DNA of 64,000 nt. Origin: Gemmatimonadota bacterium. GTDB taxonomy: Bacteria > Gemmatimonadota > Gemmatimonadetes > Gemmatimonadales > GWC2-71-9. The notes beneath the pieces were generated by a model. The model was given only the letters and a program-made list of their open reading frames with translations, made no database searches and was not told where the DNA came from. Every line of letters begins with the position of its first letter. Position 1 is the stretch's first letter. Below are positions 18,950 through 38,073 of the stretch, in pieces. Both the position numbers and the translations under genes were made by a program. The stretch lies in assembly GCA_041497135.1 (NCBI GenBank), contig JBGQFX010000005.1, positions 27,683 to 91,682 of the forward strand, written 5' to 3'.

Positions 18950-20275
18950 ATGATGAGACACGTGGTGAGAGCGATGTGCGTGGGCTGGCTCGTCGGTGCG
19001 GGCGCCTGCGTGGAGACCGATCGTTTGCTCCCGCAACCACCGTCGCTGGATGCCGAGCTGCGGCAGTCGCTGCCGCAGTGGGGGGTGGTCCCGATCAACG
19101 CGCAACCGGTCCAGGATCCGTCGCTGGTCGCGCTCGGTCAGGCGTTGTTCTTCGACAAGGTGCTGAGCGGTAACCGCGACATTGCCTGCGCGACGTGTCA
19201 CAACCCAGCCACGGCGATGGGCGACGGCCAGTCGCTGGCGGTCGGCACCGGCGGCACCGGCGTCGGCCCCGCGCGCACGCTGGGCCCGGGACGGCAATTC
19301 GTGCCCCGCAATGCACCGACGTTGCTCAATGTGGCGCTTGGCCTTCCATATGTGTTCTGGGATGGCCGGGTAACGGGCTTCGCGGGCCAGTTCCAGACGC
19401 CAGCCGGCGCGGCATTGCCTCCCGGATTGCCCAGCATCCTCGCGGCGCAGGCGATGTTCCCGGTCACCAACCGCACCGAGATGCGCGGGGAGCCCGGCGA
19501 TGCGGATGTGCTCGGGAAGCCCAATGAGCTGGCACAGTACGGCGACAGCCAGTGGACCGAGATCTGGCGCGCGGTGATGCTCCGGCTGCTCGCGATCCCC
19601 GCCTACACGGCCAGATTCAGCGCCGCGTTCCCGGGTACGCCCACGAATCAGCTCGGCTTCCAGCACGCAGCCGCAGCGATCGCCGCGTACGAGACGCAGG
19701 TGCTCACGAGAACCGATTCACCATTCGACCGGTATCTGAAGCGGGACGATGACGCCTTGACGGCGGAACAAAAGCGCGGTGCGTTGCTCTTTTTCGGGAA
19801 GGCGACCTGCTCGAGCTGCCACAACGGCCCGCAGCTCGGTGCCGGGAACTTCGTCGACGTCGGCGTACCGCAGCTCGGGCCGGGCGTGGGCCCCGAGCCG
19901 CCGCTCGATCTCGGGCGCGGCGCGCTCCCCGACAACGAGTTCTATCGCTTCGCGTTCCGCGTAGCCCCGCTGCGCAACGTCGAGCTGACGGCGCCCTACT
20001 TCCACGATGGGGCCTACCCGACGCTCGAGGCCGTAGTGCGGCACTACAACGACGTCCGGGTGGCGCTGTCGGGGTTCGACGCGGCTCAACTGGCGCCGGA
20101 CCTGCGCGCCACCTATCACGGTGACGCCGCCACGGTCGTCGCAGTGCTCGAGCGACTGGACTTCCGCCTGCAGCAGCCGCTGCGCCTCACCGAGACAGAG
20201 CGCGCCGAGCTGGTGGCGTTTCTCAAGGCGCTCACCGATCCGTCGGCACGGGACCTGAGCGCGCTGGTGCCCTAG
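18950..20275 (+). CDS. di-haem cytochrome c peroxidase (CCP/MauG family)
   Basis: Two CxxCH haem motifs (CATCHNP, CSSCHNG), conserved ...PLRNVELTAPYFHDG... GAGGAG SD. N-terminal signal/lipoprotein-like. Confidence 0.9.
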   Translation: MMRHVVRAMCVGWLVGAGACVETDRLLPQPPSLDAELRQSLPQWGVVPINAQPVQDPSLVALGQALFFDKVLSGNRDIACATCHNPATAMGDGQSLAVGTGGTGVGPARTLGPGRQFVPRNAPTLLNVALGLPYVFWDGRVTGFAGQFQTPAGAALPPGLPSILAAQAMFPVTNRTEMRGEPGDADVLGKPNELAQYGDSQWTEIWRAVMLRLLAIPAYTARFSAAFPGTPTNQLGFQHAAAAIAAYETQVLTRTDSPFDRYLKRDDDALTAEQKRGALLFFGKATCSSCHNGPQLGAGNFVDVGVPQLGPGVGPEPPLDLGRGALPDNEFYRFAFRVAPLRNVELTAPYFHDGAYPTLEAVVRHYNDVRVALSGFDAAQLAPDLRATYHGDAATVVAVLERLDFRLQQPLRLTETERAELVAFLKALTDPSARDLSALVP

Positions 20276-20784
20276 CGGCGCACGCCGTGTTGCACCGGCG
20301 CCTGCACGTGCGCCTCGACGAACCACAGCCACTTGTCGATGCCGCGCGAGATCTCGGTGCAGATGTCCGCGCTGCCGGCGTCGCCCAACTCGTCGGTTTC
20401 GTCGATCGCCTTGCGGATGCGCGACCCGAATTCCGCCAGGGCGCCCGCGAAGGCGCCGGCATGGTCCGCGCCATCCGCGATGGTGCGCGGGTAGTCGGTG
20501 AGCTCGGTGCGTCCGGCGACCATTCGGACCGTGCCTTCCGCGATGCCGCCGACCTGCACCACACGCTCGGCCAGGAGGTCCGCGTACTCGCTCACTGCGG
20601 CGCGCACTTCGTCGAACAGCTTGTGCAGCGCGATGAACTGCGGACCCTTCACATTCCAGTGTGCCTGCTTGGCTTGTGAGGCCAGATCCACGGCGTCTGC
20701 CAGACGCTCGTTCAAGAGATCGGCGACCTGCGCCCGGGTGGTCTCGGGGAGATCGTTGCTGGTTTCGTACACGATGCTGGACAC
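20272..20784 (-). CDS. dps: Dps (DNA starvation/stationary-phase protection) ferritin-like protein
   Basis: QAKQAHWNVKGPQFIALHKLFDE...AERVVQVGG...DE.DELGD..SADI. GGAGG SD before the GTG. Confidence 0.9.
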   Translation of the reverse strand: MSSIVYETSNDLPETTRAQVADLLNERLADAVDLASQAKQAHWNVKGPQFIALHKLFDEVRAAVSEYADLLAERVVQVGGIAEGTVRMVAGRTELTDYPRTIADGADHAGAFAGALAEFGSRIRKAIDETDELGDAGSADICTEISRGIDKWLWFVEAHVQAPVQHGVRR

Positions 20785-20949
20785 GTTGGCCTCCGGGGTG
20801 ATCGACGCTAGGTCTCTGCGTAGCCGAACGGTGCCTGTTTGTGTCTGAGGTTATTGCCAATCCTCGATGAGGAATTCGTGCTGTCGCTGGACCGGTTGCC
20901 CCGAGCTTGTCGCGTGGGCATTATTTGCGGGTCCACTCGAGAGCAAGGT

Positions 20950-22851
20950 ATGGCGCTGACTCGCTTAATCGAACCGCTGGTCCGTGACAAGGGCGTCCTT
21001 CGCCAGGCTACCTGGGAGGAAGCGTTGGACCGGGCCGCCGATGGCTTCCGCCGCGTGAAGACGCAGTATGACGGTGACGCCATCGGCACGTTCAGCTGCT
21101 CCAAGGCCAGCAATGAGATGAATTTTCTGGCCGCGAAGCTGAGCCGCGTCGTGTTCGGGACACACAACATCGACAGCTGCAACCGGACGTGACACGCTCC
21201 TAGCGTCGTCGGTCTGGCGACAGTGTTTGGCGCCGGTGGAGGCACCAGCTCCTACCGTGAAGTGGAAGAGACGGACGTCATCTTCCTGTGGGGAGCGAAC
21301 GCCCGGGAAAACCACCCTATTTTTTTCCATCACGTCCTGAAGGGCGTGCACCGGGGCGCACGGCTGTACGCCGTTGACCCGCGGCGCACCTCCTCGGCGC
21401 AATGGGCCGACGAGTGGCTCGGCATCCACGTGGGCACGGACATCGCGCTCGCCAATGCGATGGCGCGCGAGATCATCCACGCCGGGCTCGTGAACGAGGC
21501 ATTCATCAAGCATGCGACGATAGGGTTCGACGCATACCGCGACGGCGTCGAGCGTTACACGCTGGCGTATGCCGAACGGGAAACCGGGGTCCCGGCCGAC
21601 GTGATCCGCCGCGCCGCGCTCGCGTATGCGCGCGCCGACCGGGCGATCATCTGCTGGACGCTGGGCATCACCGAGCACCACAACGCGGTCGACAACGTGC
21701 TCGCGCTGATCAACCTGGCGCTCCTGACGGGCCATGTGGGACGCTACGGCTCGGGTGTCAACCCGCTGCGGGGACAGAACAACGTCCAGGGCGGTGGGGA
21801 CATGGGTGCCATCCCGAACCGCCTCGTGGGATTCCAGGACTGGACCACGGACCCCGAGGTGCGCGCCAAGTTCGAGCGCGCCTGGGGCGTGGCGCTCAAG
21901 CCCGAGTACGGCAAGAACCTCACGATGATGTTCGAGGCGATGGAACATGGCGAGCTCAAGGCGGTCTACGCCATCGGTGAGAACCCGGCGCTGTCCGAAG
22001 CGGACCAGCACCGTGCGCAAAGGCTGCTCGCCGGCCTCGAGCACCTCGTCGTACAGGACATCTTCCTCACCAAGACGGCCGAATTTGCCCACGTCGTGCT
22101 GCCGGCGTCGTCGAGCTGGTGTGAAGCCGAGGGCACAGTCACCAACAGCGAGCGACGCGTGCAGCGCATGCGGCCGGCACTCACCCCGCCCGGCAACGCG
22201 CGCGACGACATCGGCATCATCGTCGAGATCGCCCGGCGGCTCGGCCATGAGTGGGGTCAGCCCAGTGCGGAACAGATCTGGAACGAGGTACGAAGTCTGG
22301 CACCGATGTTCGCGGGCATGAGTTACGAGCGGCTGGAGCAGGAGGGCGGGCTGCAGTGGCCCTGCTACGACGAGAATCATCCGGGGGAGCTGTTTCTCCA
22401 CGGCCGCCTCTGGCAGGAGCCGCGTGAGGGCCCGCCGGCGCCCTTCTCCGTGGTGGAGCATGACCCGCCGCTAGAGCGGCCCGATGCGGAGTATCCCTTC
22501 ACGCTGACCACCGGGCGGCGGCTGGATTCGTACAACACCGGCGTGCAGACCGCCGGGTACAAGTCGCCGCTGCGGCGCGGGGAGACACTCGACATTTCGC
22601 CGGAGGACGCGGACCGCCTCGGTCTAGCGGACGGCGACCGCGTGCGCGTGACGTCCCGGCGTGGCAGTGTGGTCGCTCCGGCGCACCTGGACCGCGGGTT
22701 GCGGCCCGGCCTCGTCTTCATGACGTTGCACTTCCAGGACGACGTGACCACCAACGTGCTGACCGTCGATTACACCGACCCGAAATCGGGCACGGCCGAG
22801 TTCAAGGCTTGCGCCGTGCAGGTCACGCCGCTTGGATCTTCGACTTCCTGA
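20950..22851 (+). CDS. formate dehydrogenase catalytic (Mo/W-bisPGD) polypeptide, selenocysteine-containing. It lacks the N-terminal Fe-S domains, which are encoded separately at 24640..25605.
   Basis: Two same-frame track ORFs are joined by TGA 21190-21192: ...VVFGTHNIDSCNRT-U-HAPSVVGLATVFGAGGGT... (compare E. coli FdhF NNVDCCARVUHGPSVAGL). The N-terminus MALTRLIEPLVRDKGVLRQATWEEALD aligns just after the Fe4S4 motif of FdhF. Confidence 0.9.
21190..21221 (+). other. UGA (Sec) codon and fdhF-type SECIS stem-loop
   Basis: TGA CAC GCT CCT AGC then GTCGTC-GGTCT-GGCGAC (21205-21221): 6-bp stem including one G-U, with loop GGUCU. Position and loop resemble the E. coli fdhF SECIS (..GCAGGUCUGC..). 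Confidence 0.7.
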
Positions 22852-24643
22852 CGCGACGCCGGCCGTGGCCGAGCGCGCCGCGATCGACACGCTGCTAGGA
22901 GCCCCCAGCTCCGGTTGGGACGGCGGCCCCCGCCAGGCTCGCGACGCGCACACCGCCCAGGGCGGCCACGCCGCCCGCGGCCAGCGCCACCTGCTGTTGC
23001 CGGCGCTCGAGGCGGTGCAGGCACGCGTCGGCTGGATCAGCCCCGGCGCCTTCAACTATATCTGTGAGCGTCTGACCGTTCCCCCCGCCGAGGCGTATGG
23101 AGTGGCCACGTTCTACGCGCTGCTGCCTACCGTGCCGCGGCCGGCACGGGTGGTGCACGTATGCGACGACATCGCGTGCCGGGTGAAGGGTTCTGCCAGG
23201 CAGTTCGCGGACGGCTGGCTCCACAGTCCGTGTCTCGGTCTGTGCGATCAGGCGCCGGCCGCGCTGCTCATAGAAGCGGGCGAGAGTCCGGTCGAGCGGC
23301 TATTCGGGAACGCGACCGCGGCCTCGATCACGCAGGTGATGAAAGGCGACCTCGGCCCGACGACCGTGCCGCGCCTCCGTCTTCCGCAAGCGGGCGACCC
23401 CTCGCTACAGATCCTGCGCCGCGTCGATATCATCGATCCCTCGAGCCTGGACGACTACAAAGCCCATGGTGGATACGACGCGCTGCGACGGGCGATCGAG
23501 CTCGGCCCCGAAGGCGTGATCCGCGAGGTGACTGATTCCCGCCTGATGGGGCGGGGCGGCGCCGCGTTCCCGACCGGCAGGAAGTGGGACGCCGTCGCCC
23601 GCCAGCCGGTCCGGCCCCATTACCTGGTCTGCAACGCCGACGAGTCGGAGCCGGGGACGTTCAAGGATCGCGTCCTGATGGAATGTGATCCGTTCAGCGT
23701 CGTCGAAGCGATGACGATCGCGGCCTATGCGACCGGGTGCGAGCGCGGGTTCATCTACCTGCGGGGCGAGTATCCGCTGGCCCGCGAGCGGCTGCAGCAC
23801 GCCATCGACGCGGCGAAAAGCCGCGGCCTGCTGGGCGATGCCGTGATGGGGCAGTCCTTTGGGTTCGACATCGAGATCCGTCGCGGCGCCGGCGCCTACA
23901 TTTGTGGCGAGGAGACCGCGATTTTCAACTCGATCGAGGGATTGCGCGGCGAGCCCCGCAACAAGCCGCCGTTCCCGGTCCAGGCCGGGTTGTTCGGCAA
24001 GCCCACCGTCGTCAACAACGTCGAAACCCTGGTCAACGTGCTCGAGATCCTCCGCCTCGGCGGGCCCGCCTACGCGAAGATCGGGACCGAGGGCTCGACG
24101 GGCACGCGGCTCTTCTGCCTCTCGGGATGTGTGACGCGTCCCGGCGTGTACGAAGTGCCGTTCGGCATCACGTTGCGACGGCTGCTTGATCTCGCGGGTG
24201 GCGTGGCCGGAGGCCGGAAGCTCCAGGCGATCCTGTTGGGCGGCGCGGCCGGTGTGTTCGTGCGTCCCGACGAGCTCGACTTGCCGCTCAGCTTCGAGGG
24301 GGCGCGGGCGGCCGGCGCGACCCTGGGCTCCGGTGTGGTCATGGTTTTCGACGACACGGTCGACATGGCGGACATCGTGCTTCGCATCGCGGCGTTCTTC
24401 CGCGACGAGTCCTGCGGGCAGTGCGTGCCCTGCCGGGTGGGCACGGTGCGACAGGAGGAGGCGTTGCACCGGCTCACGCGCGGCAGGCCGCGGGGCGGGG
24501 TGAAGGGAGAGCTGGCGTTGCTCGAGGAGATCGGGGTCGCGATGAAGGACGCGTCGATCTGCGGACTGGGACAGACGGCCTACAGTGCGGTCGAGTCGGC
24601 CGTCAAACGGCTAAACCTGTTCGACGGAGCCAAAGGCCGATGA
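22832..24643 (+). CDS. NAD-reducing diaphorase subunit: NuoE-like (FdsG) fused to NuoF-like (FdsB)
   Basis: The N-terminus carries the 2Fe-2S pattern VCDDIAC...SPCLGLC. This is followed by GRGGAAFPTGRKW, YLVCNADESEPGTFKDR, GAGAYICGEETA and ESCGQCVPCR (FMN/NADH/4Fe-4S motifs). The TTG start overlaps the fdh catalytic gene end. Confidence 0.9.
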   Translation: MDLRLPDATPAVAERAAIDTLLGAPSSGWDGGPRQARDAHTAQGGHAARGQRHLLLPALEAVQARVGWISPGAFNYICERLTVPPAEAYGVATFYALLPTVPRPARVVHVCDDIACRVKGSARQFADGWLHSPCLGLCDQAPAALLIEAGESPVERLFGNATAASITQVMKGDLGPTTVPRLRLPQAGDPSLQILRRVDIIDPSSLDDYKAHGGYDALRRAIELGPEGVIREVTDSRLMGRGGAAFPTGRKWDAVARQPVRPHYLVCNADESEPGTFKDRVLMECDPFSVVEAMTIAAYATGCERGFIYLRGEYPLARERLQHAIDAAKSRGLLGDAVMGQSFGFDIEIRRGAGAYICGEETAIFNSIEGLRGEPRNKPPFPVQAGLFGKPTVVNNVETLVNVLEILRLGGPAYAKIGTEGSTGTRLFCLSGCVTRPGVYEVPFGITLRRLLDLAGGVAGGRKLQAILLGGAAGVFVRPDELDLPLSFEGARAAGATLGSGVVMVFDDTVDMADIVLRIAAFFRDESCGQCVPCRVGTVRQEEALHRLTRGRPRGGVKGELALLEEIGVAMKDASICGLGQTAYSAVESAVKRLNLFDGAKGR

Positions 24644-25605
24644 GCGCCCTGGTCCGCATCGAGCCGGTCCGCCGCACGGTCGAGCTCACGATCGACGGCG
24701 AGAAGGTGCGCGCGCCCGAGGGCTCGACGATCCTCGACGCCTGCCGCCAGCGTGGCCAGTCGATCCCAACGTTGTGCTACATCGACACGTTGCACCCGGT
24801 CAACGTGTGTCGCGTATGTGTTGTGGAGGTCGAAGGCTCGCGCGTGCTCGTCCCGTCCTGCTCGCGCAAGGTCGAAGCCGGGATGGTCGTGAAGACCGAC
24901 AGCGAGCGGGTGCGGCACAGCCGCAAGATGGTGCTCGAGTTCCTCGCATCGTCGGTGGACCTCTCGACCACGCCGGACGTCGCCGGATGGCTCACCGATT
25001 ACGGGGCCGACCCGGAGCGGTACGGGCCGCCGGCCACGAGCGACGGGCGTGACGCGGCGCAACCGGGTCACCATGCGCCCCCGGACCCCGATCGCCGGGC
25101 GACCGTGGCGCAGCCAACGAAGATCGACAACGATCTCTACATCCGCGACTACAAGAAGTGCATTCTGTGCTACAAGTGCGTCGAGGCGTGTGGCTCGGAT
25201 TGGCAGAACACGTTCGCGATCGCCGTAGCGGGGCGGGGGTTCGATGCGCGCATTTCGACCGAGTTCGCGACCGAGCTTCCCAAGTCGGCGTGTGTCTATT
25301 GCGGCAACTGCATCGCGGTGTGCCCCACGGGTGCTTTGATGCCGAAGAGCGAATTTGATCACCGGGCGGCGGGCACGTGGGATGAATCGCGCCAGACTGT
25401 TACGCGCACCGTATGTCCCTATTGCGGTGTGGGGTGCAACCTCGAGTTGCACGTGCAGGACAACACGATCGTAAAGGTCACCTCGCCCCTCGATCACGAT
25501 GTGACCAGCGGCAATCTCTGCATCAAGGGGCGGTTCGGCTGGGAGTACGTCCAGAGCCGGGCTACGCCTCCCACTCCGGACGGTCGGAAAAAGAAGAAGC
25601 GCTAG
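24640..25605 (+). CDS. NuoG-N-terminal-like Fe-S protein, equivalent to the N-terminal third of an FdsA/FdhF alpha subunit (2Fe-2S, 2x 4Fe-4S, MopB Fe4S4 motif)
   Basis: ELTIDGEKVRAPEGSTILDACRQRG...CRVCVVEV; CILCYKCVEACG; CVYCGNCIAVCP; TVCPYCGVGCNLELHV...GNLCIKGRFGWEYV. It ends with the basic tail RKKKKR. ATGA overlap with the preceding gene. Confidence 0.85.
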   Translation: MSALVRIEPVRRTVELTIDGEKVRAPEGSTILDACRQRGQSIPTLCYIDTLHPVNVCRVCVVEVEGSRVLVPSCSRKVEAGMVVKTDSERVRHSRKMVLEFLASSVDLSTTPDVAGWLTDYGADPERYGPPATSDGRDAAQPGHHAPPDPDRRATVAQPTKIDNDLYIRDYKKCILCYKCVEACGSDWQNTFAIAVAGRGFDARISTEFATELPKSACVYCGNCIAVCPTGALMPKSEFDHRAAGTWDESRQTVTRTVCPYCGVGCNLELHVQDNTIVKVTSPLDHDVTSGNLCIKGRFGWEYVQSRATPPTPDGRKKKKR

Positions 25606-26453
25606 AGCGACAGTCGCTCGGGGTGGGTATAGACCGTGAGGCGGTCCCGGCGCGCGAAGCCGACCAGCGTCAGTCCCGCCTGCTCGGCCAGGCGCACGGC
25701 CAGGCCGGTCGGACCCGAAATCGCGACTAACAGCGGTGCGCCGAGCACCGTCGTCTTCTGCACCATTTCGAAGCTTGCCCGGCTGGTGACGATCACGAAC
25801 CCATCGTGGGGCGTGACGCCACGCCGGAGCAGCGCGCCGATCAACTTGTCGAGCGCGTTGTGCCGGCCGACATCCTCCCGTACCAGTTCGACCGTGCCGT
25901 CGCGACGAGCCCAGGCCGCGGCATGCACTGTGCCGGCAGCGGCGTTCAGCTGCTGCTGCTTCGTGAGGGAGTCGAGCGCTGCCTCGATTGCCGGGCGAGC
26001 AACCGTCGTACCCTGCGACACCGGGTGCAGCGTCTTCAGGACCGCGTCGATGCTGTCGGTGCCGCAGATTCCGCATCCCGTGCGTCCGGTGAGGCGACGT
26101 GAGCGGGTGGCGATCACGGCCTCGCATTCGGGCGGAACCGTGGCCTGCACTTCAATCCCCTGACCGTAGCGCACGACCTTGATGTCGCCCAGGTCGGTCG
26201 CTGTGCGAATCAGCTCCTCCGTGATGCTAAACCCAACGATGAAATCTTCCAGGTCGGCAGGCGTCGCCATCATCACGACGTGCGGGATGCCGTTATAGAC
26301 GAGGACTACTGGCGTTTCTTCGACGATTTGCTCTGCGCGCTCCTGGACCTGGCCGTCCCGCCATTGGCGGGCCTGGAGCTCGAGCAGCGGCCCGGCATAG
26401 CCGAGGCGTTGCAGGCCGAGCGGGTGTTGCATCTGGTTGAGATCGGCGGGCAT
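25602..26453 (-). CDS. fdhD: formate dehydrogenase accessory sulfurtransferase FdhD
   Basis: ...LTGRTGCGICG...VHAAAW...EDVGRHNALDKLIGA...VTSRASFEMVQK... Confidence 0.9.
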   Translation of the reverse strand: MPADLNQMQHPLGLQRLGYAGPLLELQARQWRDGQVQERAEQIVEETPVVLVYNGIPHVVMMATPADLEDFIVGFSITEELIRTATDLGDIKVVRYGQGIEVQATVPPECEAVIATRSRRLTGRTGCGICGTDSIDAVLKTLHPVSQGTTVARPAIEAALDSLTKQQQLNAAAGTVHAAAWARRDGTVELVREDVGRHNALDKLIGALLRRGVTPHDGFVIVTSRASFEMVQKTTVLGAPLLVAISGPTGLAVRLAEQAGLTLVGFARRDRLTVYTHPERLSL

Positions 26454-27419: not shown

Positions 27420-27791
27420 CTACCGCACTCCTACATTCACCGAGATGTTGCTGCCGTCATTCAGTAGCGCCGTGATCGCGTAGGTACCGCTGGTCCATCC
27501 CTTGGTCCCCAAGTTGAAGATGTACTGCTGACTCACTACATCGTAGCGGAAGGTGATTCCCTGATTTGGCACCGTGGACGTCACGGTTTCGTTGACGTTG
27601 CTCGGCGCGCTGTTGGACACCCTGTTCACCTGGATCGTCGCTACGGCGGTGCTCACCGGTGTCACTCCGTCCGCCAGGAAGAGCTGGAACTTCACCGGGA
27701 TCGTGGACCCGATCTTGAACACGCTCTGTGCTTGCGGCGGCGTGTTGATCGGCTGGAGGAAGCCGTGGCCTACGGCGGTGTTGTACAGCAC
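27420..27791 (-). repeat. 372-nt 3'-terminal coding module duplicated at 30870..31241
   Basis: By-eye alignment gives about 30 mismatches in 372 nt, including a 99-nt perfectly identical run (27508-27606). Flanking terminator hairpins are also homologous. Confidence 0.85.
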
Positions 27792-30554
27792 CGCAATCGA
27801 GACGCTCTTCGCCGCGGTGCTGTAGTCCACCTGGTCGTCTGGCGTGAAGCTCACGCCGAGGGGCTGCGGCCCCGGGTTCAGGATCGTGCCCGCGGGTGGT
27901 GCGTAGCTGAACGTGCCGGTGAGAGACACACCACCCACGCCGGTCGCGGTCGCGTTCAGCTGGGTGCTGCCCAACGCCTGGCCGTAGAGCATCGAGCTCG
28001 GCGGATTCCAGGTGATGAGCGGCGTTGCCTTCGCGATGGAGAAGCTCTGTACCACACTCGGCGCCGGGTTGAAGCTGGCGTCGCCGGCCTGGTCGGCGGT
28101 GATCGTGCAGGCACCTGCGCCGGTGAGGGAGACTATGTTCCCGGAGACCGTGCAGCTGCCGCTCGCCGAGAAGGTCACGGGCAGCCCAGAGGCTGCACTC
28201 GCATTGATCGCGAACGGCGGCTCGCTGAACAAATGGCTGCTCAGGGTGCCAAAGCTGATCGTCTGGTCGGCTTTGCTCATCAAAAGCCGCGTCCCGTTTC
28301 CGCCATTCCATATCCGGGCGATTTCAGCATCCGACAGCGCTCTGTTCCAGATAGCAATTTCGTCGAGAGATCCGTCGAATGAAAAATCTCTGCCGTCCTG
28401 AGCATCTCGCTTGCCAATCAGCAGTGGGTTGGGGGAGCCGATTACCACCCCCCCCGAGGGCCCGAAACCGCGCAGACTTCCATCAAAGAACAAATAGCCA
28501 GTGTTCCCGCTTTGCCGAGTGACGATTTGATGCCAGACGCCGGTGGTAACCGTTCCCAGGGAGAGGGAGGCCGTGGTGTAAGTCCACCCGCCAGGCCCGC
28601 AGCAACCTGTCCACTTCTCGATAAGCGCTTGCTCCCGATAGTTGATGTTTGTGTTAAACCAAACCTGGACAGTGTTGTCGCCGGACACGAGATCGAAAGC
28701 GGGGTCGTTCGTCGGTTGTTGTGCGTAGGAGTCGTTATTGCCTGGCAGGACGAGCGCCTGCCCCAGCAGTCCGGGGCCGAATCCTGCACCGCCAAACAGG
28801 GACAGATTCCGCCCGTTGCCGGATGCATCGTTCGCGGTTCCTTCGAAAGGCCAGTAGCCGAGAAGGCCAGTGGTGATTGTCTGGTTGTTGCCCGTGTGGT
28901 AGAGGGCTGCGATTTCGACTCCAGACAAGGCGCGGTTGTAGATCTCCGGCTCGTCAATCTCCCCGTTCAGGTGTGCTCCCTGGAGGATGTACGAGCCGAA
29001 ACGAAGGTTGGCCGAATGAGAATCGAGGAAGGCTGGAACGGGGGAACGGGTGTCTTCCAGGACTCCGTTGACGTACAGCGAGAAGCTACCCGAGCTCTTG
29101 ACGGCGGCAACGTGGTACCACACGCCGGTCACCGCGTGCGTGGTACTGAATAGGGTGTAGGCAGGGTCATAACACCGGTTGCCCGACCCGCCACCGAAGC
29201 AGAACCAGAAACGGTTGTCAACCTGCTTCAGGAGGCGCCAGCCATCGGTGTCCACCCCGTTGGCGGACATTTTATCCACGATGGACTCATCACCGCCCCA
29301 ATCGCTACTAAGCGAGTTGAACAGCACCCATGCGTCTACCGTGAAGTCGCCGCCTGAGACCTGAAGGTTTGGCGCATTGCCGACGTCGACGTAGTCATCG
29401 ATGCCGTCCAAGAGGAACGCCTGTCCCACCCTGCCTGAAGCGAACGTGGCGCCGTTCTCCAGCGTGCCATCGTTGCCATCCACAACATCATTCGCGCTTC
29501 CGTCACCCGGCCACCGACTGACTGGACCCGTGCTCGCTGCCGCGGGGGTGAACGCCTCGACCGCCGCGACGAAGTTGCCTGGGCTACTTGACCCACCCAT
29601 GACGTAGAGCGAGCCATTCACCACGCCCACTGCTGGAGCGAACTGGGGTGCAGGCAGCGAGGCGACTGAGGTCCAAGTATCGGTCGCCGGATCGTATGCG
29701 TCGACCGTCGATAGCATGCTGCCGTTGTACCCGCTCACCGCATAGAGCACGCCGTTTACCACTCCCACGCCGGAGCCGTACCGAGGGACAGGCAGGGATG
29801 CCTTTGTGGTCCACGTGTCCGTTCCAGGGTTGTAAGCCTCGACCGTCCCGAGGAAACCGCCGTCGTATCCCCCCACCGCATAGAGCACGCCGTTTACCAC
29901 GCCCACCGCCAGGTCCTTTCGCGGTGTCGGCATCGATGACTTGGTGGTCCACGTGTCGGTACTAGGATCATAGGCCTGGACCGTCCCGACGATGTCGGAG
30001 GGGTTGTTACCGGGGCTGGTGTATCCACCAACGGCATAGAGCACACCATTCACTACGCCCACTGCAAGGCCTGAACGTGGCGTCGGCATCGACGCTTTGG
30101 TACTCCAAGCGTTCGTGCCGGGGTCATAGGCCTCGACGGTCCCGAGTTGGGTGAAACCGTTATTCATTCCACCAACCGCGTAGAGTACACCATTCACCAC
30201 GCCCACTCCGACAAAATCCCCTCGCGGAGTCGGCATCGATGTCTTAGTGGTCCAGGCGTCGGTACTGGGGTCATAGGCCTCGACCGTCTCGACAAACGTG
30301 CCAAAGTTGTTCCCCCCCACGGCGTAGAGCACACCGTTCACAACGCCTCCCCCGAGCCCATCCCTTGGCACTCCCATCGGAGTCTTCGTGGTCCACATAC
30401 CGCTGCCGGGGACAATCTGGAAACTGGGAGTCAAGTTCGGCGGGCCCGCTGGGGATGACACATCCCGGTTGCACCCGAACAACACAAGGCTGACCGAAGT
30501 CAGCACGGCCAGCGCACTCAGCCGCGACAACTCCCGTGGGCTCACTCGATGCAT
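27420..30554 (-). CDS. giant lipoprotein: Kelch-repeat propeller + two LamG-like jelly-roll domains + Ig-like domains + conserved C-terminal ~122-aa module
   Basis: Lipobox LVLFGC after MHRVSPRELSRLSALAVLTSVS (ATG 30554, AGGAGG SD). About six VVNGVLYAVGG...YDP.T..W Kelch blades. LamG-like segments (AFLLDGIDDYVDVG...FTVDAWV; ...GSLDEIAIWNRALS). C-terminal ...GSTIPVKFQLF... Confidence 0.8.
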   Translation of the reverse strand: MHRVSPRELSRLSALAVLTSVSLVLFGCNRDVSSPAGPPNLTPSFQIVPGSGMWTTKTPMGVPRDGLGGGVVNGVLYAVGGNNFGTFVETVEAYDPSTDAWTTKTSMPTPRGDFVGVGVVNGVLYAVGGMNNGFTQLGTVEAYDPGTNAWSTKASMPTPRSGLAVGVVNGVLYAVGGYTSPGNNPSDIVGTVQAYDPSTDTWTTKSSMPTPRKDLAVGVVNGVLYAVGGYDGGFLGTVEAYNPGTDTWTTKASLPVPRYGSGVGVVNGVLYAVSGYNGSMLSTVDAYDPATDTWTSVASLPAPQFAPAVGVVNGSLYVMGGSSSPGNFVAAVEAFTPAAASTGPVSRWPGDGSANDVVDGNDGTLENGATFASGRVGQAFLLDGIDDYVDVGNAPNLQVSGGDFTVDAWVLFNSLSSDWGGDESIVDKMSANGVDTDGWRLLKQVDNRFWFCFGGGSGNRCYDPAYTLFSTTHAVTGVWYHVAAVKSSGSFSLYVNGVLEDTRSPVPAFLDSHSANLRFGSYILQGAHLNGEIDEPEIYNRALSGVEIAALYHTGNNQTITTGLLGYWPFEGTANDASGNGRNLSLFGGAGFGPGLLGQALVLPGNNDSYAQQPTNDPAFDLVSGDNTVQVWFNTNINYREQALIEKWTGCCGPGGWTYTTASLSLGTVTTGVWHQIVTRQSGNTGYLFFDGSLRGFGPSGGVVIGSPNPLLIGKRDAQDGRDFSFDGSLDEIAIWNRALSDAEIARIWNGGNGTRLLMSKADQTISFGTLSSHLFSEPPFAINASAASGLPVTFSASGSCTVSGNIVSLTGAGACTITADQAGDASFNPAPSVVQSFSIAKATPLITWNPPSSMLYGQALGSTQLNATATGVGGVSLTGTFSYAPPAGTILNPGPQPLGVSFTPDDQVDYSTAAKSVSIAVLYNTAVGHGFLQPINTPPQAQSVFKIGSTIPVKFQLFLADGVTPVSTAVATIQVNRVSNSAPSNVNETVTSTVPNQGITFRYDVVSQQYIFNLGTKGWTSGTYAITALLNDGSNISVNVGVR

Positions 30555-30799
30555 ACATCCCTCCTGGGAATTTGGGTTGGGCACGGCTGCAGCTGTGGGC
30601 TAGGCCCGTTGTGTCGCAAACCACGGCGCTGATCCACGTGCGCTGTTCGCATGCTTACGCTGTTTCTCGCCCTTGCGGCTCTTCTAGACTCTGTGCCATT
30701 AGACCCGCCCCCGTGACACCAGTGGAACGTCGGTGGGGCACGCCAGACGCGAATTCGAACGGACCGCGCGCGACGGTGGGGAGCTTCGACTGACAGAAC

Positions 30800-30869: not shown

Positions 30870-31241
30870 CTACCGCGCTCCTACATTCACCGTGATGTTG
30901 CTGCCGTCATTCAACAGCGCGGTGATCTGGTAGGTCCCGCTGGTCCATCCCTTGGTGCCCAAGTTGAAGATGTACTGCTGACTCACTACATCGTAGCGGA
31001 AGGTGATTCCCTGATTTGGCACCGTGGACGTCACGGTTTCGTTGACGTTGCTCGGCACGCTGTTGGACACCCTGTTCACCTGTATCGTCGCCACGGCAGT
31101 ACTCACGGGCGTCACGCTGTCCGCCAGGAAGAGTTGGAATTTCACAGGAATAGTGGAGCCGATCTTGAACACGCTCTGTCCTTGCGGTGGGGTGTTGATC
31201 GGCTGGAGGAAGCCGTGTCCCACGGCGGTGTTGTAGAGCAC
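30870..31241 (-). repeat. 372-nt 3'-terminal coding module, copy 2 of 27420..27791
   Basis: See the copy 1 entry. The encoded 123 aa differ at only a handful of positions. Confidence 0.85.
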
Positions 31242-33431
31242 AGAGAAGGTCTGCTGGACGCTCGGCGCCGGATTGAAGTGATCGTCGCCGCCCTGATCGG
31301 CGGTGATGGTGCAGGAGCCGACGCCGGTAAGGGAGACGGTGCTCCCGGAGACCGTGCAGCTGCCGCTCGCCGAGAAGCTCACGGGTAGGCCCGAGGATGC
31401 GCTCGCGCTGATCGTGAACAGTGGATCGCCGAAGGTTCGGTTGCTGAGTGTGCCGAAGGTAATTGCCTGATCGGTCTTGGTCGGCGCGGGGACGGTTATG
31501 CGGCCGATCTTGTTCGCGCCGCTCTCGTTGAACCACAGGGCCCCATCAGGTCCGGCGATAATGGCGGAAGGCCCGCTGCTGGCCGTGGAGACGGGGAATT
31601 CGGTGATGACGCCGGCGGTGGTGATCCGGCCGATCTGGTTTGCGGGGTACTCGGTGAACCAGAGGGCGGCATCCGGCCCCGCAGTTATGCCGAAAGGCCC
31701 GCTGCTAGCCGTGGGGGTTGTGAATTCGGTGATGACGCCAGCGATGGTGATCCGGCCAATCGTGTTGCCGTGCGGAACGGCTGCACCGTCAAGCGGTGCG
31801 GACTCGGTGAACCAGAGGGCGGCATCCGGCCCCGCAGTTATGCCGAAAGGCCCGCTGCTGGCCGTGGGAATTGTGAATTCGGTTATCGCGCCGCCGGTGG
31901 TGATTCGGCCAATCTGGTTGCCGTTGAACTCGGCGAACCAGAGGGCGCCATCCGGTCCCGCGGCAATACCGAGAGGCCGGCTAGCGGGCGTCGGAATGAC
32001 GAATTCGGTGATGACGCCGGCGGTGGTGATCCGGCCGATCTGGTTGCCGAACTGCTCGGTGAACCAGAGGGCGCCGTCGGCCCCGGCAGTGATACTTAGG
32101 GGAAAGGCGCCGGCCGTGGGGACGGCGAATTCGGTGATGGCGCCGGTCGTGGTGATCCGGCCAATCGCGTTGGAGCCCTGTTCGGCGAACCAGAGGGCGT
32201 CATCCGGCCCCGCAGCAATGTTCAAAGGCACGCTGCCAGCCGTGGGGACGCTGAATTCGGTGATGACGCCGCCGGTAGTGATCCGGCCGATCGTGCCGCC
32301 CTGTTCGGTGAACCAGATGGCGCCGTCCGGCCCTGCGGTGATGCCGAAAGGCACGCTGGCCGTGGGAATGGGGAACTCGCTGAAGTTCCCCGCGGTGGGT
32401 GCTGGGGTGAAGGCCTCGTTTGTCGAAACCGTCACCAGGCCGCCGCCCTCCGCGGCATTCCCCCCCACGACGTAAAGCACACCGTTGATCCCCTGTGGCT
32501 GCGTGGAGAAGCGAGCAGTCGGGATCGGTGCCAAGCTCGTCCAGCTGTCGGTCGCCGGATCATACGCCTCAACTGTGTTGACAACGCCAGGCCCGCTGCC
32601 AGTCCAGCCGCCCACTGCGTAGAGAATGCCGTTTACTTCACCGACGCCAATACTTATTCGTCCGGTCGGCATTGGGGTCTTGGTCGCCCACGTATCCGTG
32701 GCAGGATCGTATACCTCAAGAGCAGCACTACCATTGACTGAAGTCTGGTCGGTCTGACCTCCGGCGACGTAGAGTTTTCCATTGATGACTGCAGCTCCGG
32801 CCCGCAGGCGAGCCGTGGGCATCGGGGCCTTGGTCGCCCACGTATCCGTAGCCGGATCGTATGCCTCCAGCGTGGCGAAAGGAGGGCAGCCTAAGTGATC
32901 GCAGGGAGCTCCCCCGACAACATAGAACTTCCCCCCTATAGCTCCCGCCGCTGATTCGAAGCGCGCTGTGGGCATCGGGGTCTTGGTCGCCCAATGATCG
33001 GTCGCCGGATCATAGACTTGGAGTGTGTTGTGCGGCGCACTACATCCCGGGGCGCATCCGCCCGCGATATAGAGCTTGCCAGCGATAGTCGCAGCGCCGA
33101 ACTCCGCCGCCGCTGCCGTTGGCATGCCAGCCCCCGTGGCCCACGCATCGGTCACGGGATTGTATACGATGACCGGGCCGCCGAAGCTCAGGTTATTGAC
33201 CAAGTACAGGTTCCCGCTAATGACCGCACTTGCAAAGCAGCAGGCGGAGGGCTCGGGGGTCCTAGTCGTCCAGGTGCCGCTGCCGGGGAGTATCTGGAAA
33301 CTGGGCTTCGGGGTCCTCGGTCCCGTGAGGGAGGACTCCTCGCGGTTGTCACTGCAACCCGCCAACGCCAGGCCAACCAATGCCAGCGCCATCGGGGCGA
33401 TCCATCCCACCGACTGTCGTGTGCGAAACAT
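30870..33431 (-). CDS. giant lipoprotein: Kelch-repeat propeller + seven-bladed Vgb(virginiamycin B lyase)-like propeller + Ig-like domain + the same C-terminal ~122-aa module
   Basis: Lipobox LALAGC after MFRTRQSVGWIAPMALALVG (ATG 33431, GGGAGG SD). Kelch blades (GKLYVAGG...YDPATDTWATK). Seven repeats of F.IPTA.S.P.GITAGPDGALWFTE...N.IGRITT.G.ITE. Confidence 0.8.
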   Translation of the reverse strand: MFRTRQSVGWIAPMALALVGLALAGCSDNREESSLTGPRTPKPSFQILPGSGTWTTRTPEPSACCFASAVISGNLYLVNNLSFGGPVIVYNPVTDAWATGAGMPTAAAAEFGAATIAGKLYIAGGCAPGCSAPHNTLQVYDPATDHWATKTPMPTARFESAAGAIGGKFYVVGGAPCDHLGCPPFATLEAYDPATDTWATKAPMPTARLRAGAAVINGKLYVAGGQTDQTSVNGSAALEVYDPATDTWATKTPMPTGRISIGVGEVNGILYAVGGWTGSGPGVVNTVEAYDPATDSWTSLAPIPTARFSTQPQGINGVLYVVGGNAAEGGGLVTVSTNEAFTPAPTAGNFSEFPIPTASVPFGITAGPDGAIWFTEQGGTIGRITTGGVITEFSVPTAGSVPLNIAAGPDDALWFAEQGSNAIGRITTTGAITEFAVPTAGAFPLSITAGADGALWFTEQFGNQIGRITTAGVITEFVIPTPASRPLGIAAGPDGALWFAEFNGNQIGRITTGGAITEFTIPTASSGPFGITAGPDAALWFTESAPLDGAAVPHGNTIGRITIAGVITEFTTPTASSGPFGITAGPDAALWFTEYPANQIGRITTAGVITEFPVSTASSGPSAIIAGPDGALWFNESGANKIGRITVPAPTKTDQAITFGTLSNRTFGDPLFTISASASSGLPVSFSASGSCTVSGSTVSLTGVGSCTITADQGGDDHFNPAPSVQQTFSVLYNTAVGHGFLQPINTPPQGQSVFKIGSTIPVKFQLFLADSVTPVSTAVATIQVNRVSNSVPSNVNETVTSTVPNQGITFRYDVVSQQYIFNLGTKGWTSGTYQITALLNDGSNITVNVGAR
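31485..32384 (-). repeat. seven tandem ~126-nt coding repeats (propeller blades)
   Basis: Blades 5 and 6 share an identical FT.PTASSGPFGITAGPDAALWFTE stretch. The corresponding DNA is near-identical over about 75 nt (about 31655-31730 vs 31805-31880). Confidence 0.75.
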
Positions 33432-33496
33432 ACGTCCTCCCGCTCCAGTGGAATTGTGATGCGATGACGCAGCAAGGACCGCCTTGCTATCCCCAC

Positions 33497-33521
33497 GAAC
33501 GACGCGGATGTTTGCTCCGTC
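33497..33521 (+). promoter_or_regulatory. candidate ECF-type promoter GAAC-N17-CGTC
   Basis: acGAAC gacgcggatgtttgctc CGTCt lies about 49 nt upstream of the sigma-factor GTG. This is the general ECF -35/-10 pattern (GGAAC...CGTC). Confidence 0.35.
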
Positions 33522-33569
33522 TCCGTCCGCTAGAGTCACTTAGAGATCTGTGCCTCACCACAGGCGCTC

Positions 33570-34950: not shown

Positions 34951-37900
34951 TTGCGTGCCGCTCGGCTGCGTCTCGCCGCCATCGAGCAGCGGACCGTGCT
35001 GAACGAGGACAGCGCGCTGTCGCTATACCGTGCAGCGATCGCCGCCGACTCCGAGTATCTCCCAGCACAATTCGAATACATCACCATGATGCGCGGCGAC
35101 TTGTTTCGCGGGCCGGAGCTTACTCGGGAGTACGGCGCCTCGGCTGGGCACATAGGGATCCATGGGTGCCTCGCCGCCGCCACGTCAGGAGCGAACGATA
35201 TCGGGCGGCCGATCACTCTGCTCCTCGCCCTCGAGCGCCGCGCGGGGCTCTCGTCGTGTACCGACATCTTTCTGATCGCCTGGTCTCAGTTCCGTGAAGG
35301 ATCACCGGAGGGGCTGCGTGACGGATTGGCGCGCGGCGCGCGTCTCGTCCGGGAACTTCCAGAGGTGTCCAACGTGTGGTCGTCATACGCCAGTCGCCTG
35401 GCCGCGGCCGGCCGCGCTGGCGAGGCGGAGCGCGTGCTGCGTGAAGGGATCGCGCGCGTCGCAGATCCGTTTGCCCGATTCAACATGATGGGAACGCTGG
35501 GCGGATTCCACTTGAGTCAAGGAGACACAGCTGGCGCTGTCGCCCTGTGGCGAGCGGCTCGCGATGCCGTTCTGCGCGATGGCCGTCCGCGTCTCGAGGC
35601 TCAGTATCTCTCGGGTGTATGCGATGGTGCCTGGCTCTCGGACCCGACACCCGCCGCGCGGGAACGCGCCTGCCGCGAGCAGCTCGCGATCCTCCACGCG
35701 CACCATGCCTGGCTCTCGGAATGGGGTGACGCACGCAATCGTGGACACGTCCTGGTCGATCGCGGCTTCTTCGCAGCCGCCCTTCTGTACCTCAATCGAG
35801 CGGTGGCGCTGGCGGACAGCGTCGGCACGCCGGGCCTACGCCTGATAGCGCACAATGAGCGTGGGCGAGTGTACTCGAAGCTCGGCCGGCTGGCGCTCGC
35901 TGAACGGGACCTGCGGCTGGCCATCGCGGCGGGGGCGACGGCCGATGAGCCGTATTACCTAGCCGAAGCCTACCACAACCTCGCGCACACTTACGAAGGA
36001 GCGGGCCGCTTCGCGGAAGCGGCGGGCGCCGCCGATACGTTCGCGGCGCTCACCGCCCCGATGCGCTGGAACCCCGAACGGATGATCAGCCGCTACGACG
36101 CCGGGACGATCCGCTGGAAGGCGGGGTGGCACGCCGCGGCAGCCAGAGACTTCGCCGCGATGGTGCGGATCGTCGATGAGCAAGGCGTGTCGCAGTACTT
36201 CGCGGGGGAGTACTATGAGCGCGTCGGCGACTTGGGCCGCGCGTTGCGGTACTACCGTGACGGCGCGCGCATCGACAACGAGCCCCGCAGCCTGGCCGCA
36301 CTCGCGCGCCTCTACGAGGCGCTCGGCCTACCAGACAGTGCGGCAGAAGTAGCCAGGCTGCATGACGCACGGCCGATGAAGTGGACGATCCTCGAGGGCC
36401 CCTTGCTGCCCGGCGTGCTGGCGAGGCGGGGGCGGCTCTCAGAAGCTATCGCGCTGAGCGAGGGATGGGCGCGCCAGGAACTACTCAACGGAAACGTGGA
36501 GGGCGCCGCCGCGGCCAACCTCCAGCTCGCCCAGTTCCAGCTCCAAGACCATGAGCCTGGGGCGGCCCTCACCTCCGCCACGCGAGCCGACAGCTTGAGC
36601 CGCACGCTGCACCTCACGGGCGAGAGCATCAAGGCGTGGAGGCTCGAAGGGCGTGCGCTGCTCGAGACAGGGAAGCGGACCCAGGGGATGGCCGCCCTAC
36701 GGGAGGCGGTGTCGCTCGCGCGGGCCCATCCCACCGCGGCAGAGTTGTTGGAGACCGACCTCGCGCTCGGCGACGCATCGCGGACGGGCGGCGACCCCGC
36801 GGCCGCACTCGCGGCGTACGACCGCGCCGCCGCGGTGACCGAGCGTCTGACGGCCGGACTCGAGGACGATCCCGATCGCACCGGGTTTCGTGCCCTACAC
36901 CTGGCCCCATTCGACGGCGCGCTCCGCATCCTGCTCCGTCCGGGGGCGGCGTCGTCGGCGGACGCCGCGCTGCGCTGGTCGGCACGACGCAAGGGAGCCG
37001 CACTCGTACTCGCAGGTCTCCCGACGACGGCCCTCCATCCACCTTCCGCGAATGACATCCACGCGACTATCGGTCGGGATGAGGCGCTCGTCGACTACAC
37101 CGTGCTCGATTCGGGAGTCACGGCGTTCGTCGTCGGTCGTCGCGGGGCGACAATCGTGCCGCTCAGCACGCCTCTGGCCCGGCTGGCCTCGTGGACGGAA
37201 GCCATTCGGCGCCCGCTCGTGGCGGCCCCGGGCGGGCGCGTGGATCTCGCCCACGCACGCTTCGACATCGCGGCGGCGGAAAGTCTGTTTCGCGCGCTGG
37301 TGGCGCCGCTCACGGAGGCGCTTGGCAGCGCCCGCCGCCTGGCAATCATACCCGATGGCTTGTTGTGGTATGTGCCGTTTCCCGCGCTCGTCGTGGACTC
37401 AGCCTACCTGATCGACCGCTACGAGGTCCGTTTGCTGCCCTCCGCACAATTCCTCACGGTCGCGTCCCAGCACGGTACCCTTCCCACACGGTTTCATGTT
37501 CTCGCGATGAGCTACGACGTGCCGGGCGGCGCCGCGGAGGTCGCAAGGGTTCGGAATGCGCTTGGGGCGGGGCAGGTGCAGACGCTGGAGGGGGGCGCCG
37601 CGACGGAGCACGCGGCCCTCGAGGCTTCGGTAGACGTCCTCCATCTGGCCGCGCACGGTCTGGTTGATGATCGGGATCCTCTCGCCTCTCACTTGCGCTT
37701 GGCGCCCGACCGACGAGACGACGGTTTGTTGCACGTCTCGGAGATCGCGGCACAGCGGCGCGTCCCCCGACTGGTGGTGCTCAGCGCATGCGAATCGGTG
37801 AGCGGACGCCTGTATGCGGGAGAGGGTCTGGTGGGGTTGGCGCGCGCCTTCTTGGTGGGGGGCGCCCGTCAGGTCGTGGCCAGTCAGTGGCCGGTGGACT

Positions 37901-38073
37901 CGAGTGCGGCAGCTCTGATGGGAGTCTTTTACGAACAGCTCGCTAAGGGCCATTCGCCTTCAGCAGCCCTACGGGAGGCTCAACTTGCGCTCAAGGCACG
38001 CCCGAATACTGCTCATCCGATCCACTGGGCAGGGTTCGTAGTGTTCCAAGGGGGGATGGCTGGCGCTCGGTGA
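34951..38073 (+). CDS. TPR-repeat CHAT-domain (caspase-like) protease
   Basis: About 650 aa of TPR-like helices, then CHAT: RRLAIIPDGLLWYVPFPAL...VLHLAAHG (His)...LVVLSACESVSG (Cys)...GLARAFLVGGARQVVASQWPV...WAGFVVFQG. The start is uncertain (first canonical start is TTG 34951; see findings). Confidence 0.8.
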   Translation: MRAARLRLAAIEQRTVLNEDSALSLYRAAIAADSEYLPAQFEYITMMRGDLFRGPELTREYGASAGHIGIHGCLAAATSGANDIGRPITLLLALERRAGLSSCTDIFLIAWSQFREGSPEGLRDGLARGARLVRELPEVSNVWSSYASRLAAAGRAGEAERVLREGIARVADPFARFNMMGTLGGFHLSQGDTAGAVALWRAARDAVLRDGRPRLEAQYLSGVCDGAWLSDPTPAARERACREQLAILHAHHAWLSEWGDARNRGHVLVDRGFFAAALLYLNRAVALADSVGTPGLRLIAHNERGRVYSKLGRLALAERDLRLAIAAGATADEPYYLAEAYHNLAHTYEGAGRFAEAAGAADTFAALTAPMRWNPERMISRYDAGTIRWKAGWHAAAARDFAAMVRIVDEQGVSQYFAGEYYERVGDLGRALRYYRDGARIDNEPRSLAALARLYEALGLPDSAAEVARLHDARPMKWTILEGPLLPGVLARRGRLSEAIALSEGWARQELLNGNVEGAAAANLQLAQFQLQDHEPGAALTSATRADSLSRTLHLTGESIKAWRLEGRALLETGKRTQGMAALREAVSLARAHPTAAELLETDLALGDASRTGGDPAAALAAYDRAAAVTERLTAGLEDDPDRTGFRALHLAPFDGALRILLRPGAASSADAALRWSARRKGAALVLAGLPTTALHPPSANDIHATIGRDEALVDYTVLDSGVTAFVVGRRGATIVPLSTPLARLASWTEAIRRPLVAAPGGRVDLAHARFDIAAAESLFRALVAPLTEALGSARRLAIIPDGLLWYVPFPALVVDSAYLIDRYEVRLLPSAQFLTVASQHGTLPTRFHVLAMSYDVPGGAAEVARVRNALGAGQVQTLEGGAATEHAALEASVDVLHLAAHGLVDDRDPLASHLRLAPDRRDDGLLHVSEIAAQRRVPRLVVLSACESVSGRLYAGEGLVGLARAFLVGGARQVVASQWPVDSSAAALMGVFYEQLAKGHSPSAALREAQLALKARPNTAHPIHWAGFVVFQGGMAGAR

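Follow-up and report, generated by a model that had tools for sequence, protein, structure and literature searches.

Can the alpha subunit of a formate dehydrogenase (FDH) be encoded in two pieces that lie at opposite ends of one operon, with the C-terminal piece first? The question is raised by three genes on a metagenome contig of a Gemmatimonadota bacterium (JBGQFX010000005.1, assembly GCA_041497135.1), of which we analysed a stretch of 64,000 nt, hereafter the window, which also matches a metagenome contig of the Joint Genome Institute. Gene 1 (20950..22851, plus strand, 633 codons) encodes a catalytic subunit of the kind that holds molybdenum or tungsten (Mo/W) in bis(pyranopterin guanine dinucleotide) (bis-PGD) and corresponds to the C-terminal piece of FDH alpha. 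Gene 2 (22832..24643, plus strand) encodes a diaphorase in which a NuoE-like and a NuoF-like protein are fused, with a [2Fe-2S] cluster, a site for flavin mononucleotide (FMN) and NAD(P), and a [4Fe-4S] cluster, and gene 3 (24640..25605, plus strand) a HoxU/NuoG-N-like iron-sulfur (Fe-S) protein that corresponds to the N-terminal piece of alpha. Judging from sequence, we consider it likely, with a probability of roughly 0.8, that these three polypeptides, where an alpha chain and a diaphorase would be usual, form a soluble, cytoplasmic, NAD(P)+-linked Mo- or W-FDH of the FdsABG/Fdh1AB (NuoEFG-like) kind, with selenocysteine (Sec) at its active site.

The original prediction, made from the letters of the window, was that alpha is cut at the junction of its Fe4S4 and Mo domains and that its pieces stand in permuted order around a fused gene, and this is borne out by Pfam, by the NCBIfam profile TIGR01591 (Fdh-alpha) and by alignment with FdsA of Rhodobacter capsulatus. 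Gene 1 contains the Molybdopterin (PF00384, residues 5-429) and Molydop_binding (PF01568, residues 517-622) domains, that is, a bis-PGD catalytic domain with its Sec/Cys-His pair and conserved arginine; U81, H82 and R274 are invariant across 71-72 loci. Here and below, loci are the best 80 of at least 382 related stretches found in a scan in which each GTDB species was represented by one genome; a search of cluster representatives, many of them fragmentary and of no use for counts, supplied both the split members that diverge further and the closest proteins in which alpha is unsplit. Pfam finds no Molybdop_Fe4S4 domain, the domain of the proximal cluster FS0, in gene 1, and its counterparts at the other loci never have one. 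TIGR01591, whose full length includes an N-terminal FS0 segment, is matched by gene 1 in positions 52-672 only and scores 663.2 bits against a cutoff of 666.25, a shortfall of about 3 bits that arises because the FS0 segment is encoded by another gene: positions 1-52 are matched by gene 3. The latter carries PF13510 (Fer2_4, [2Fe-2S]), Fer4 families with two [4Fe-4S] motifs, and PF04879, the FS0 domain (25396..25554, plus strand, residues 253-305, E=1.3e-20), and it ends 16 residues beyond that domain.

The two pieces meet with little room to spare. Residues 13-305 of gene 3 align with residues 24-304 of R. capsulatus FdsA (6tg9_A, E=2.3e-45) and residue 5 of gene 1 aligns with residue 308, just where, as had been predicted, the alpha subunit should continue; together the two proteins span FdsA 24-933 with neither gap nor overlap. 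On unsplit relatives from the database the match to gene 3 ends at 275-289 and the match to gene 1 begins at 271-285. Within the split family, gene 3 proteins close with ...CIKGRFGxxxVQNR and a variable tail, and gene 1 proteins open with M(x)1-10 LTRLTEPLVR. Because gene 3 ends and gene 1 starts where the unsplit sequence runs on continuously, these alignments place the break within about three residues of the boundary between FS0 and domain II. This is not the seam between the HoxU-like and FdhF-like modules, which lies some 55 residues earlier, near FdsA residue 250 in the R. capsulatus structure (PMC7171172). A concealed FS0-coding extension of gene 1 was considered and excluded, since the in-frame 5' flank is unconserved and has no CxxCxxxC, and several loci have a stop four codons before the start. 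The gene 3 homologues likewise end 2-50 residues after CxKGRFGxxxVQ (the exceptions, L005, L018 and L038, are apparent read-throughs or contain internal stops), so that the Fe-S motifs of gene 3 and its stop after FS0, both described at the outset, stand; the basic tail RKKKKR described with them is not conserved, the tails of relatives being variable and often acidic. The single alpha chain with Fe-S region, FS0 and bis-PGD domain is thus absent, and alpha is split after FS0 at 80/80 loci.

All 16 cluster cysteines of gene 3 are conserved in 80/80 loci, four for the [2Fe-2S] cluster, eight of the ferredoxin type and four for FS0. The first twelve are the ligands of clusters A2, A3 and A5 of the main electron chain, in the HoxU/NuoG-like region. 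The FS0 residues C259, C262, C266 and C294 are accompanied by an equally invariant K296, which we take to be the lysine that contacts the pterin; FS0 and its lysine are therefore present, but on another polypeptide than the bis-PGD domain. Among database proteins, at least 120 clusters with 76-95% identity to gene 3 share its domain set, at lengths of 311-392 amino acids, and their source names are '2Fe-2S iron-sulfur cluster-binding protein' or 'YjgC'. One cluster site has been lost, the His-Cys3 [4Fe-4S] site (NADH-G_4Fe-4S_3, cluster A4) at residues ~100-165 (24937..25134), where R. capsulatus FdsA has DHPLDCLTCAANGDCEL and gene 3 has SSVDLSTTPDVAGWLTDYG; it is missing from every split-type protein and from the unsplit relatives P0355, P0370, P0384 and P0390. 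In R. capsulatus the His-ligated A4 lies off the electron path, at the dimer interface (PMC7171172), and by analogy the split enzyme may, for this reason, lack the electronically linked dimer of that organism. In place of the A4 loop is an insertion with a pair of histidines, His144-His145 (25069..25074, PGHHAPPDP), kept in 79-80 of the 80 loci and missing from P0241 and P0248, split members that diverge more. This pair may bind a metal or touch another subunit.

Between the two alpha pieces lies the fusion that had been predicted there, in which Pfam recognizes PF01257 (2Fe-2S_thioredx, NuoE-like), PF01512 (Complex1_51K), PF10531 (SLBB) and PF10589 (NADH_4Fe-4S). By Pfam and NCBIfam, gene 2 thus has both a NuoF-like FMN/NAD(H) unit with its [4Fe-4S] cluster and a NuoE-like [2Fe-2S] unit; the NuoF part is complete, with FMN-binding domain, SLBB and [4Fe-4S] region, and the cluster cysteines (Cys111/116/134/138 and Cys528/531/534/577) are conserved. 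Residues 50-593 align with the beta subunit of Methylorubrum extorquens Fdh1 (7e5z_B) across both the NuoE-like and the NuoF-like regions. A conserved N-terminal extension of about 45 residues, (M/V)DLRL...AERxAVDxxLG, precedes the NuoE-like part within residues 1-193 (22832..23410).

Gene 1 has a single in-frame TGA (21190..21192, plus strand), codon 81 in the context SCNRT-U-HAPSVVGL, and the homologous codon is TGA in 72/72 loci that cover the site. Gene callers stop at this conserved codon and therefore annotate gene 1 in fragments, as pieces of ~80 and ~540 amino acids (database entries P0121-P0240); the 120 best database homologues are all annotated as post-TGA pieces of 528-556 amino acids. 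Shortly after the TGA, at 21205..21221 (plus strand), lies a hairpin resembling a selenocysteine insertion sequence (SECIS), with a 6-bp stem GUCGUC/GGCGAC, a GGUCU cap and a free energy of -8.3 kcal/mol. Codons 85-90 (AGC GUC GUC GGU CUG GCG) show one third-position change in 71 loci from different phyla, at codon 85. In the sole variant of the hairpin (L061) a G-U pair becomes an A-U pair. The gene-wide mean at conserved four-fold sites is 1.11 bits, and the block of codons 82-93 is the lowest of 213 windows of sites along the gene. Support for the hairpin comes from this synonymous-site conservation, because a plain fold of the 76 nt 3' of the TGA was no better than shuffled sequence (z = -0.74). 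Rfam detected no SECIS or Moco-riboswitch family, either in the whole window at gathering thresholds or in the Sec region at E<=10, and returned chance miRNA-like matches only. The E. coli fdhF SECIS has the same GGUC loop at an equal distance from its UGA. With an in-frame UGA at the active site and a conserved stem-loop 3' to it, gene 1 has these two features expected of a bacterial selenoprotein, and decoding of the UGA as Sec is supported by the comparison of loci.

The three genes stand together across the loci. The 80 loci come from Gemmatimonadota (Gemmatimonadales, Gemmatimonadaceae and other metagenome-assembled genomes, MAGs), from Actinomycetota (Gaiellales, Solirubrobacterales and other Thermoleophilia) and from one Chloroflexota MAG, and several are on long-read contigs of 0.5-3.8 Mb. 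The survey of related genomes that had been proposed as a check shows alpha split in this way, and the genes on one strand in the order Mo, EF (the NuoE-NuoF fusion), FeS, in every locus long enough to judge, and the most divergent split member, at 56% identity (P0248, locus L082), has this order as well. Both of the translational junctions first noted in the window are there: genes 1 and 2 overlap by 20 nt, with a TTG start of gene 2 at 22832, and genes 2 and 3 share an ATGA overlap at 24640. In the other loci the homologous codon is an ATG, GTG or TTG start of gene 2, except in L061, where GAC aligns with it; relative to the stop of gene 1, the start lies between 1 nt upstream and 39 nt downstream, mostly within 15 nt. 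The 4-nt ATGA overlap recurs commonly, and gene 3 directly adjoins the EF gene in every locus that reaches upstream of gene 3. Pairwise ratios of nonsynonymous to synonymous substitution (dN/dS) are 0.07-0.29 for all three genes, which are under purifying selection. Between Gemmatimonadota and Thermoleophilia (L002-L081 against the window) amino acid identity is 69-79% for gene 3 and 68-74% for gene 1, far above expectation for a comparison across phyla, which suggests horizontal transfer of the whole operon among soil bacteria.

A gene for the FDH accessory sulfurtransferase and bis-PGD chaperone, fdhD (25602..26453, minus strand; PF02634, E=7.7e-76; TIGR00129, 210 bits against a cutoff of 140.9), does converge on the operon, as had been stated; the 3' ends of fdhD and gene 3 share 4 nt. 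Most Gemmatimonadota and Gaiellales loci have fdhD next to the operon, and its position varies with lineage, from convergent to co-directional to absent from the vicinity. No further conserved partner genes are apparent in the loci.

How such an enzyme would work can be outlined by homology with the FDH of R. capsulatus, in which electrons pass from the bis-molybdopterin guanine dinucleotide cofactor through A1 (FS0), A2, A3, A5 (the [2Fe-2S] cluster) and B6 to FMN (PMC7171172). The gene 1 protein would bind bis-PGD matured by FdhD and oxidize formate at Sec81, His82 and Arg274. The gene 3 protein would dock on it non-covalently through its C-terminal FS0 domain, bringing the proximal [4Fe-4S] cluster and Lys296 beside the pterin, so that FS0 would be supplied in trans. 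Electrons would then pass from FS0 through the two ferredoxin-type [4Fe-4S] clusters to the [2Fe-2S] cluster, all within gene 3, and from there to the [4Fe-4S] cluster and FMN of gene 2, where NAD(P)+ would be reduced. Only the off-path A4 has been lost and the clusters of the main path are all retained; if the FS0 domain of gene 3 does dock on gene 1, the chain to NAD(P)+ would for this reason be complete. Formation of the complex, its acceptor and its catalytic direction are, like this path, what we infer.

Several observations weigh against this proposal or limit its detail. The NuoE-like part of gene 2 matches positions 10-83 of a Pfam profile of 145, about half, and the spacing of its cysteines is unusually short, the second pair following 17 residues after the first. 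An AlphaFold2 model of gene 3 alone, built with 49 close homologues, has a mean pLDDT (per-residue confidence) of 51 and a pTM (predicted template modelling score) of 0.47 and is too poor for use. The 64-kb window has no tRNA gene of any kind, hence no tRNA-Sec, and selA, selB and selD are absent from the 10 large open reading frames scanned in it. No intermediates were found for the duplication route by which, as discussed below, the gene order may have arisen, and the choices between NAD+ and NADP+ and between Mo and W cannot be read from the sequence.

A different role for the same complex, as a CO2 reductase, as an NADP+-dependent enzyme or as a module of a larger or bifurcating assembly, deserves a hearing, though we regard it as rather unlikely. 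The best match of gene 1 in the PDB is a CO2-reducing enzyme, FdhF of the hydrogen-dependent CO2 reductase (HDCR) of Thermoanaerobacter kivui (7qv7_S, E=1.5e-151), with R. capsulatus FdsA also among the best, from its residue 308; the best relatives of gene 2 belong to bifurcating or transhydrogenase complexes (9bov_B, 8oh5_B, 8a6t_B), and FDHs of the FdsABG class are reversible (PMC7171172). The bifurcating HydABC/HylABC complexes, however, have HydB-type subunits with additional C-terminal ferredoxin [4Fe-4S] domains, as does the HydB-like neighbour of the database entry P0375, whereas Pfam finds no extra C-terminal Fer4 domain in gene 2, whose NADH_4Fe-4S region ends at residue 593 of 603. 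The lack of further conserved partners also speaks against a larger assembly, and the hosts (Gemmatimonadota and Thermoleophilia) are, we assume, aerobic soil heterotrophs, which counts against such a role.

Genes 2 and 3 could instead encode a HoxFU-like NAD(P)H diaphorase that stands alone and is the partner of some other enzyme, with gene 1 working either without FS0 or with another electron carrier. Gene 3 does resemble HoxU (135.8 bits) and the N-termini of NuoG, gene 2 is closer to HoxF/HydB-type proteins than to FdsB (410 against 304 bits), and Mo-bisPGD enzymes without FS0 exist in the dimethyl sulfoxide and trimethylamine N-oxide reductases. We give this arrangement very little credence. 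FS0 and its conserved lysine are invariant in gene 3, and we know of no role for them apart from a bis-PGD domain; moreover, the three genes follow one another without interruption and at short distances in every locus, in three phyla, and on unsplit FDH sequences the alpha pieces meet exactly. The HoxFU diaphorase of NAD+-reducing [NiFe] hydrogenases shares the NuoE/F and NuoG-N module with genes 2 and 3 and has, likewise, a separate catalytic partner; that partner is a hydrogenase and HoxU has no Molybdop_Fe4S4 domain, whereas gene 3 has one.

An artefact of assembly or binning might be suspected, or a pseudogenizing rearrangement that recently befell an ordinary fdsA, because the window comes from a metagenome contig and gene 1 is annotated in two fragments. 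Both are refuted by the identical architecture of independent loci, multi-megabase long-read contigs among them, by the dN/dS values and the invariance of all cofactor ligands, and by the conserved Sec TGA, which by itself accounts for the two fragments. Rejoining of the alpha pieces into a single chain after translation, by splicing of the split-intein type, would suit pieces that abut exactly on unsplit homologues, and is rejected because the gene 3 tails after FS0 vary in length and sequence, the N-termini of gene 1 lack both a conserved nucleophile and an intein block, and Pfam finds no intein domains. Thus the three findings that the original prediction had named as fatal to it, an artefact, an Fe4S4-encoding extension upstream of gene 1 and membership of gene 3 in another complex, were each looked into and none overturned the split.

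The putative split NAD(P)+-linked FDH is best understood beside the characterized enzymes that it resembles. With FdsABG(D) of R. capsulatus and Cupriavidus necator (PDB 6tg9) it shares the bis-PGD site, FS0 (A1), A2, A3 and the [2Fe-2S] cluster A5, the NuoF [4Fe-4S] cluster, FMN and the NuoE-type [2Fe-2S] cluster, as well as a maturation gene of the FdhD/FdsC type next to the operon. In contrast, FdsA is one chain of 958 amino acids with an active-site Cys and with A4, and its NuoE and NuoF partners are separate, whereas here there are two proteins at opposite operon ends, with Sec, no A4, a NuoE-NuoF fusion and no FdsD seen. Fdh1AB of M. extorquens, a W-containing, NAD+-dependent enzyme (PDB 7e5z), offers in its beta subunit a precedent for the fusion in gene 2, and genes 3 and 1 are both homologous to its alpha subunit, a single chain of 989-995 amino acids that includes FS0; Fdh1 is a Cys, not a Sec, enzyme. 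The closest relatives of gene 1 are of the FdhF/FdhH type (E. coli FdhH, 1aa6; T. kivui HDCR FdhF, 7qv7), with which it has the Sec-His motif in common; in these FS0 is domain I of the same chain, whereas gene 1 begins just after it, without positions 1-51 of TIGR01591.

Every solved relative carries FS0 on the catalytic chain, FdsA, Fdh1A, FdhH, HDCR FdhF, the F420-dependent FdhA and YjgC/ForC alike, and to our knowledge Mo/W-bisPGD enzymes that have FS0 carry it as domain I of that chain. A separate C-terminal subunit is known in another bis-PGD enzyme, the formylmethanofuran dehydrogenase FwdB/FwdD (PMC7171172), where the catalytic unit is likewise divided over two polypeptides; there the piece split off is the C-terminal cap (Molydop_binding), whereas in our operon it is the N-terminal FS0, and the genes stand in rotated order besides. 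Neither gene 1 nor gene 3 reaches the cutoff of any NCBIfam model, and a full-text search of the literature returned only gene-presence surveys, with no account of a split FDH or of FS0 on a separate polypeptide, although absence cannot be proved in this way. All this agrees with the initial remark that no characterized enzyme has this architecture. Because the single alpha chain that marks the FdsABG/Fdh1AB family is lacking, we regard the operon as a putative new architectural variant that would work like an NAD-linked FDH of that family; its chemistry is the expected one, while FS0 in trans, the rotated order and so broad an occurrence in abundant, poorly annotated soil lineages are not.

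The relatives that are not split suggest how the order may have come about. The nearest have ~37-38% identity to gene 3 and 40-46% to gene 1, and the closest, P0370 from a Nitrospinota MAG (locus L086; 46% to gene 1, 37% to gene 3), is also without A4 and lies in an operon of nuoE (103 amino acids), nuoF (375) and alpha (904). The 120 best relatives of P0370 are all unsplit, with 892-1077 amino acids, and come from anammox bacteria, Methanothrix, Planctomycetota, Bacillota and others. Since the closest unsplit relative lies in a nuoE-nuoF-alpha operon, the M-EF-N order, where N and M are the N-terminal and the Mo-coding parts of alpha, looks like a cyclic rotation of an ancestral E-F-[N|M] operon, in which the 3' Mo-coding part of alpha would have become the first cistron and NuoE and NuoF would have fused. 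As a hypothesis, the operon would have been duplicated in tandem and would then have lost E-F-N at one outer end and M at the other, and the rotated operon would then have spread between soil phyla by horizontal transfer; one type of event would in this way account for split and permutation alike. A database protein of 1405 amino acids, P0253, apparently contains two tandem FDH-alpha-like units, and a tandem arrangement of this sort would be a stage through which the duplication-then-truncation route passes.

Whether the rotation brought any advantage is a matter for speculation. It could be adaptive and the operon selenium-gated, with the UGA cistron first and the flavin and Fe-S genes downstream at close junctions, an idea that we find doubtful. 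Failure of Sec insertion would end translation early, 80 codons from the start, and the consequent loss of translational coupling, together with polarity, could shut off an orphan diaphorase that might generate reactive oxygen, while FS0 in trans would serve as an assembly checkpoint through which only a cofactor-loaded catalytic subunit joins the electron wire. The Sec codon in 72/72 loci, the conserved close junctions and the position of gene 1 as first cistron in the window are compatible with such gating.

The surroundings of the operon have less to offer. A scan of 20200-26800 for promoters and terminators gave nothing useful. Upstream of gene 1 lies a divergent Dps/ferritin-like gene (20272..20784, minus strand), adjoined by a di-haem cytochrome c peroxidase gene (CCP_MauG; 18950..20275, plus strand); the association of the Dps gene with the operon is probably incidental, because only the closest relatives (L002, L004) have that gene beside the operon. 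Downstream are genes for two secreted-looking proteins, one of 1054 amino acids with Kelch-like repeats (27420..30584, minus strand) and one of 889 amino acids with Kelch and virginiamycin-B-lyase-family beta-propeller domains (30870..33539, minus strand); beyond them a CHAT-TPR protein (34951..38073) and a TPR-containing Ser/Thr kinase (38946..41204) are encoded, and all four appear unrelated to the FDH operon.

If FS0 is supplied by a separate protein, the junction between FS0 and the pterin could be a protein-protein interface, and the enzyme would offer a modular design, a catalytic cassette and a diaphorase cassette, for the engineering of CO2/formate catalysts. For the evolution of operons it would be a clean case of gene fission combined with cyclic rotation. 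For the soil bacteria themselves, the split FDH is common in abundant lineages and poorly annotated. A soil survey has already had to lower its FDH cutoffs (PMC8141241). Because annotation cuts gene 1 at the Sec codon, because its score lies below the cutoff, and because the names given to gene 3 are generic, surveys of formate oxidation in soil probably under-count the split enzyme, and those based on hidden Markov models probably miss or misname it.

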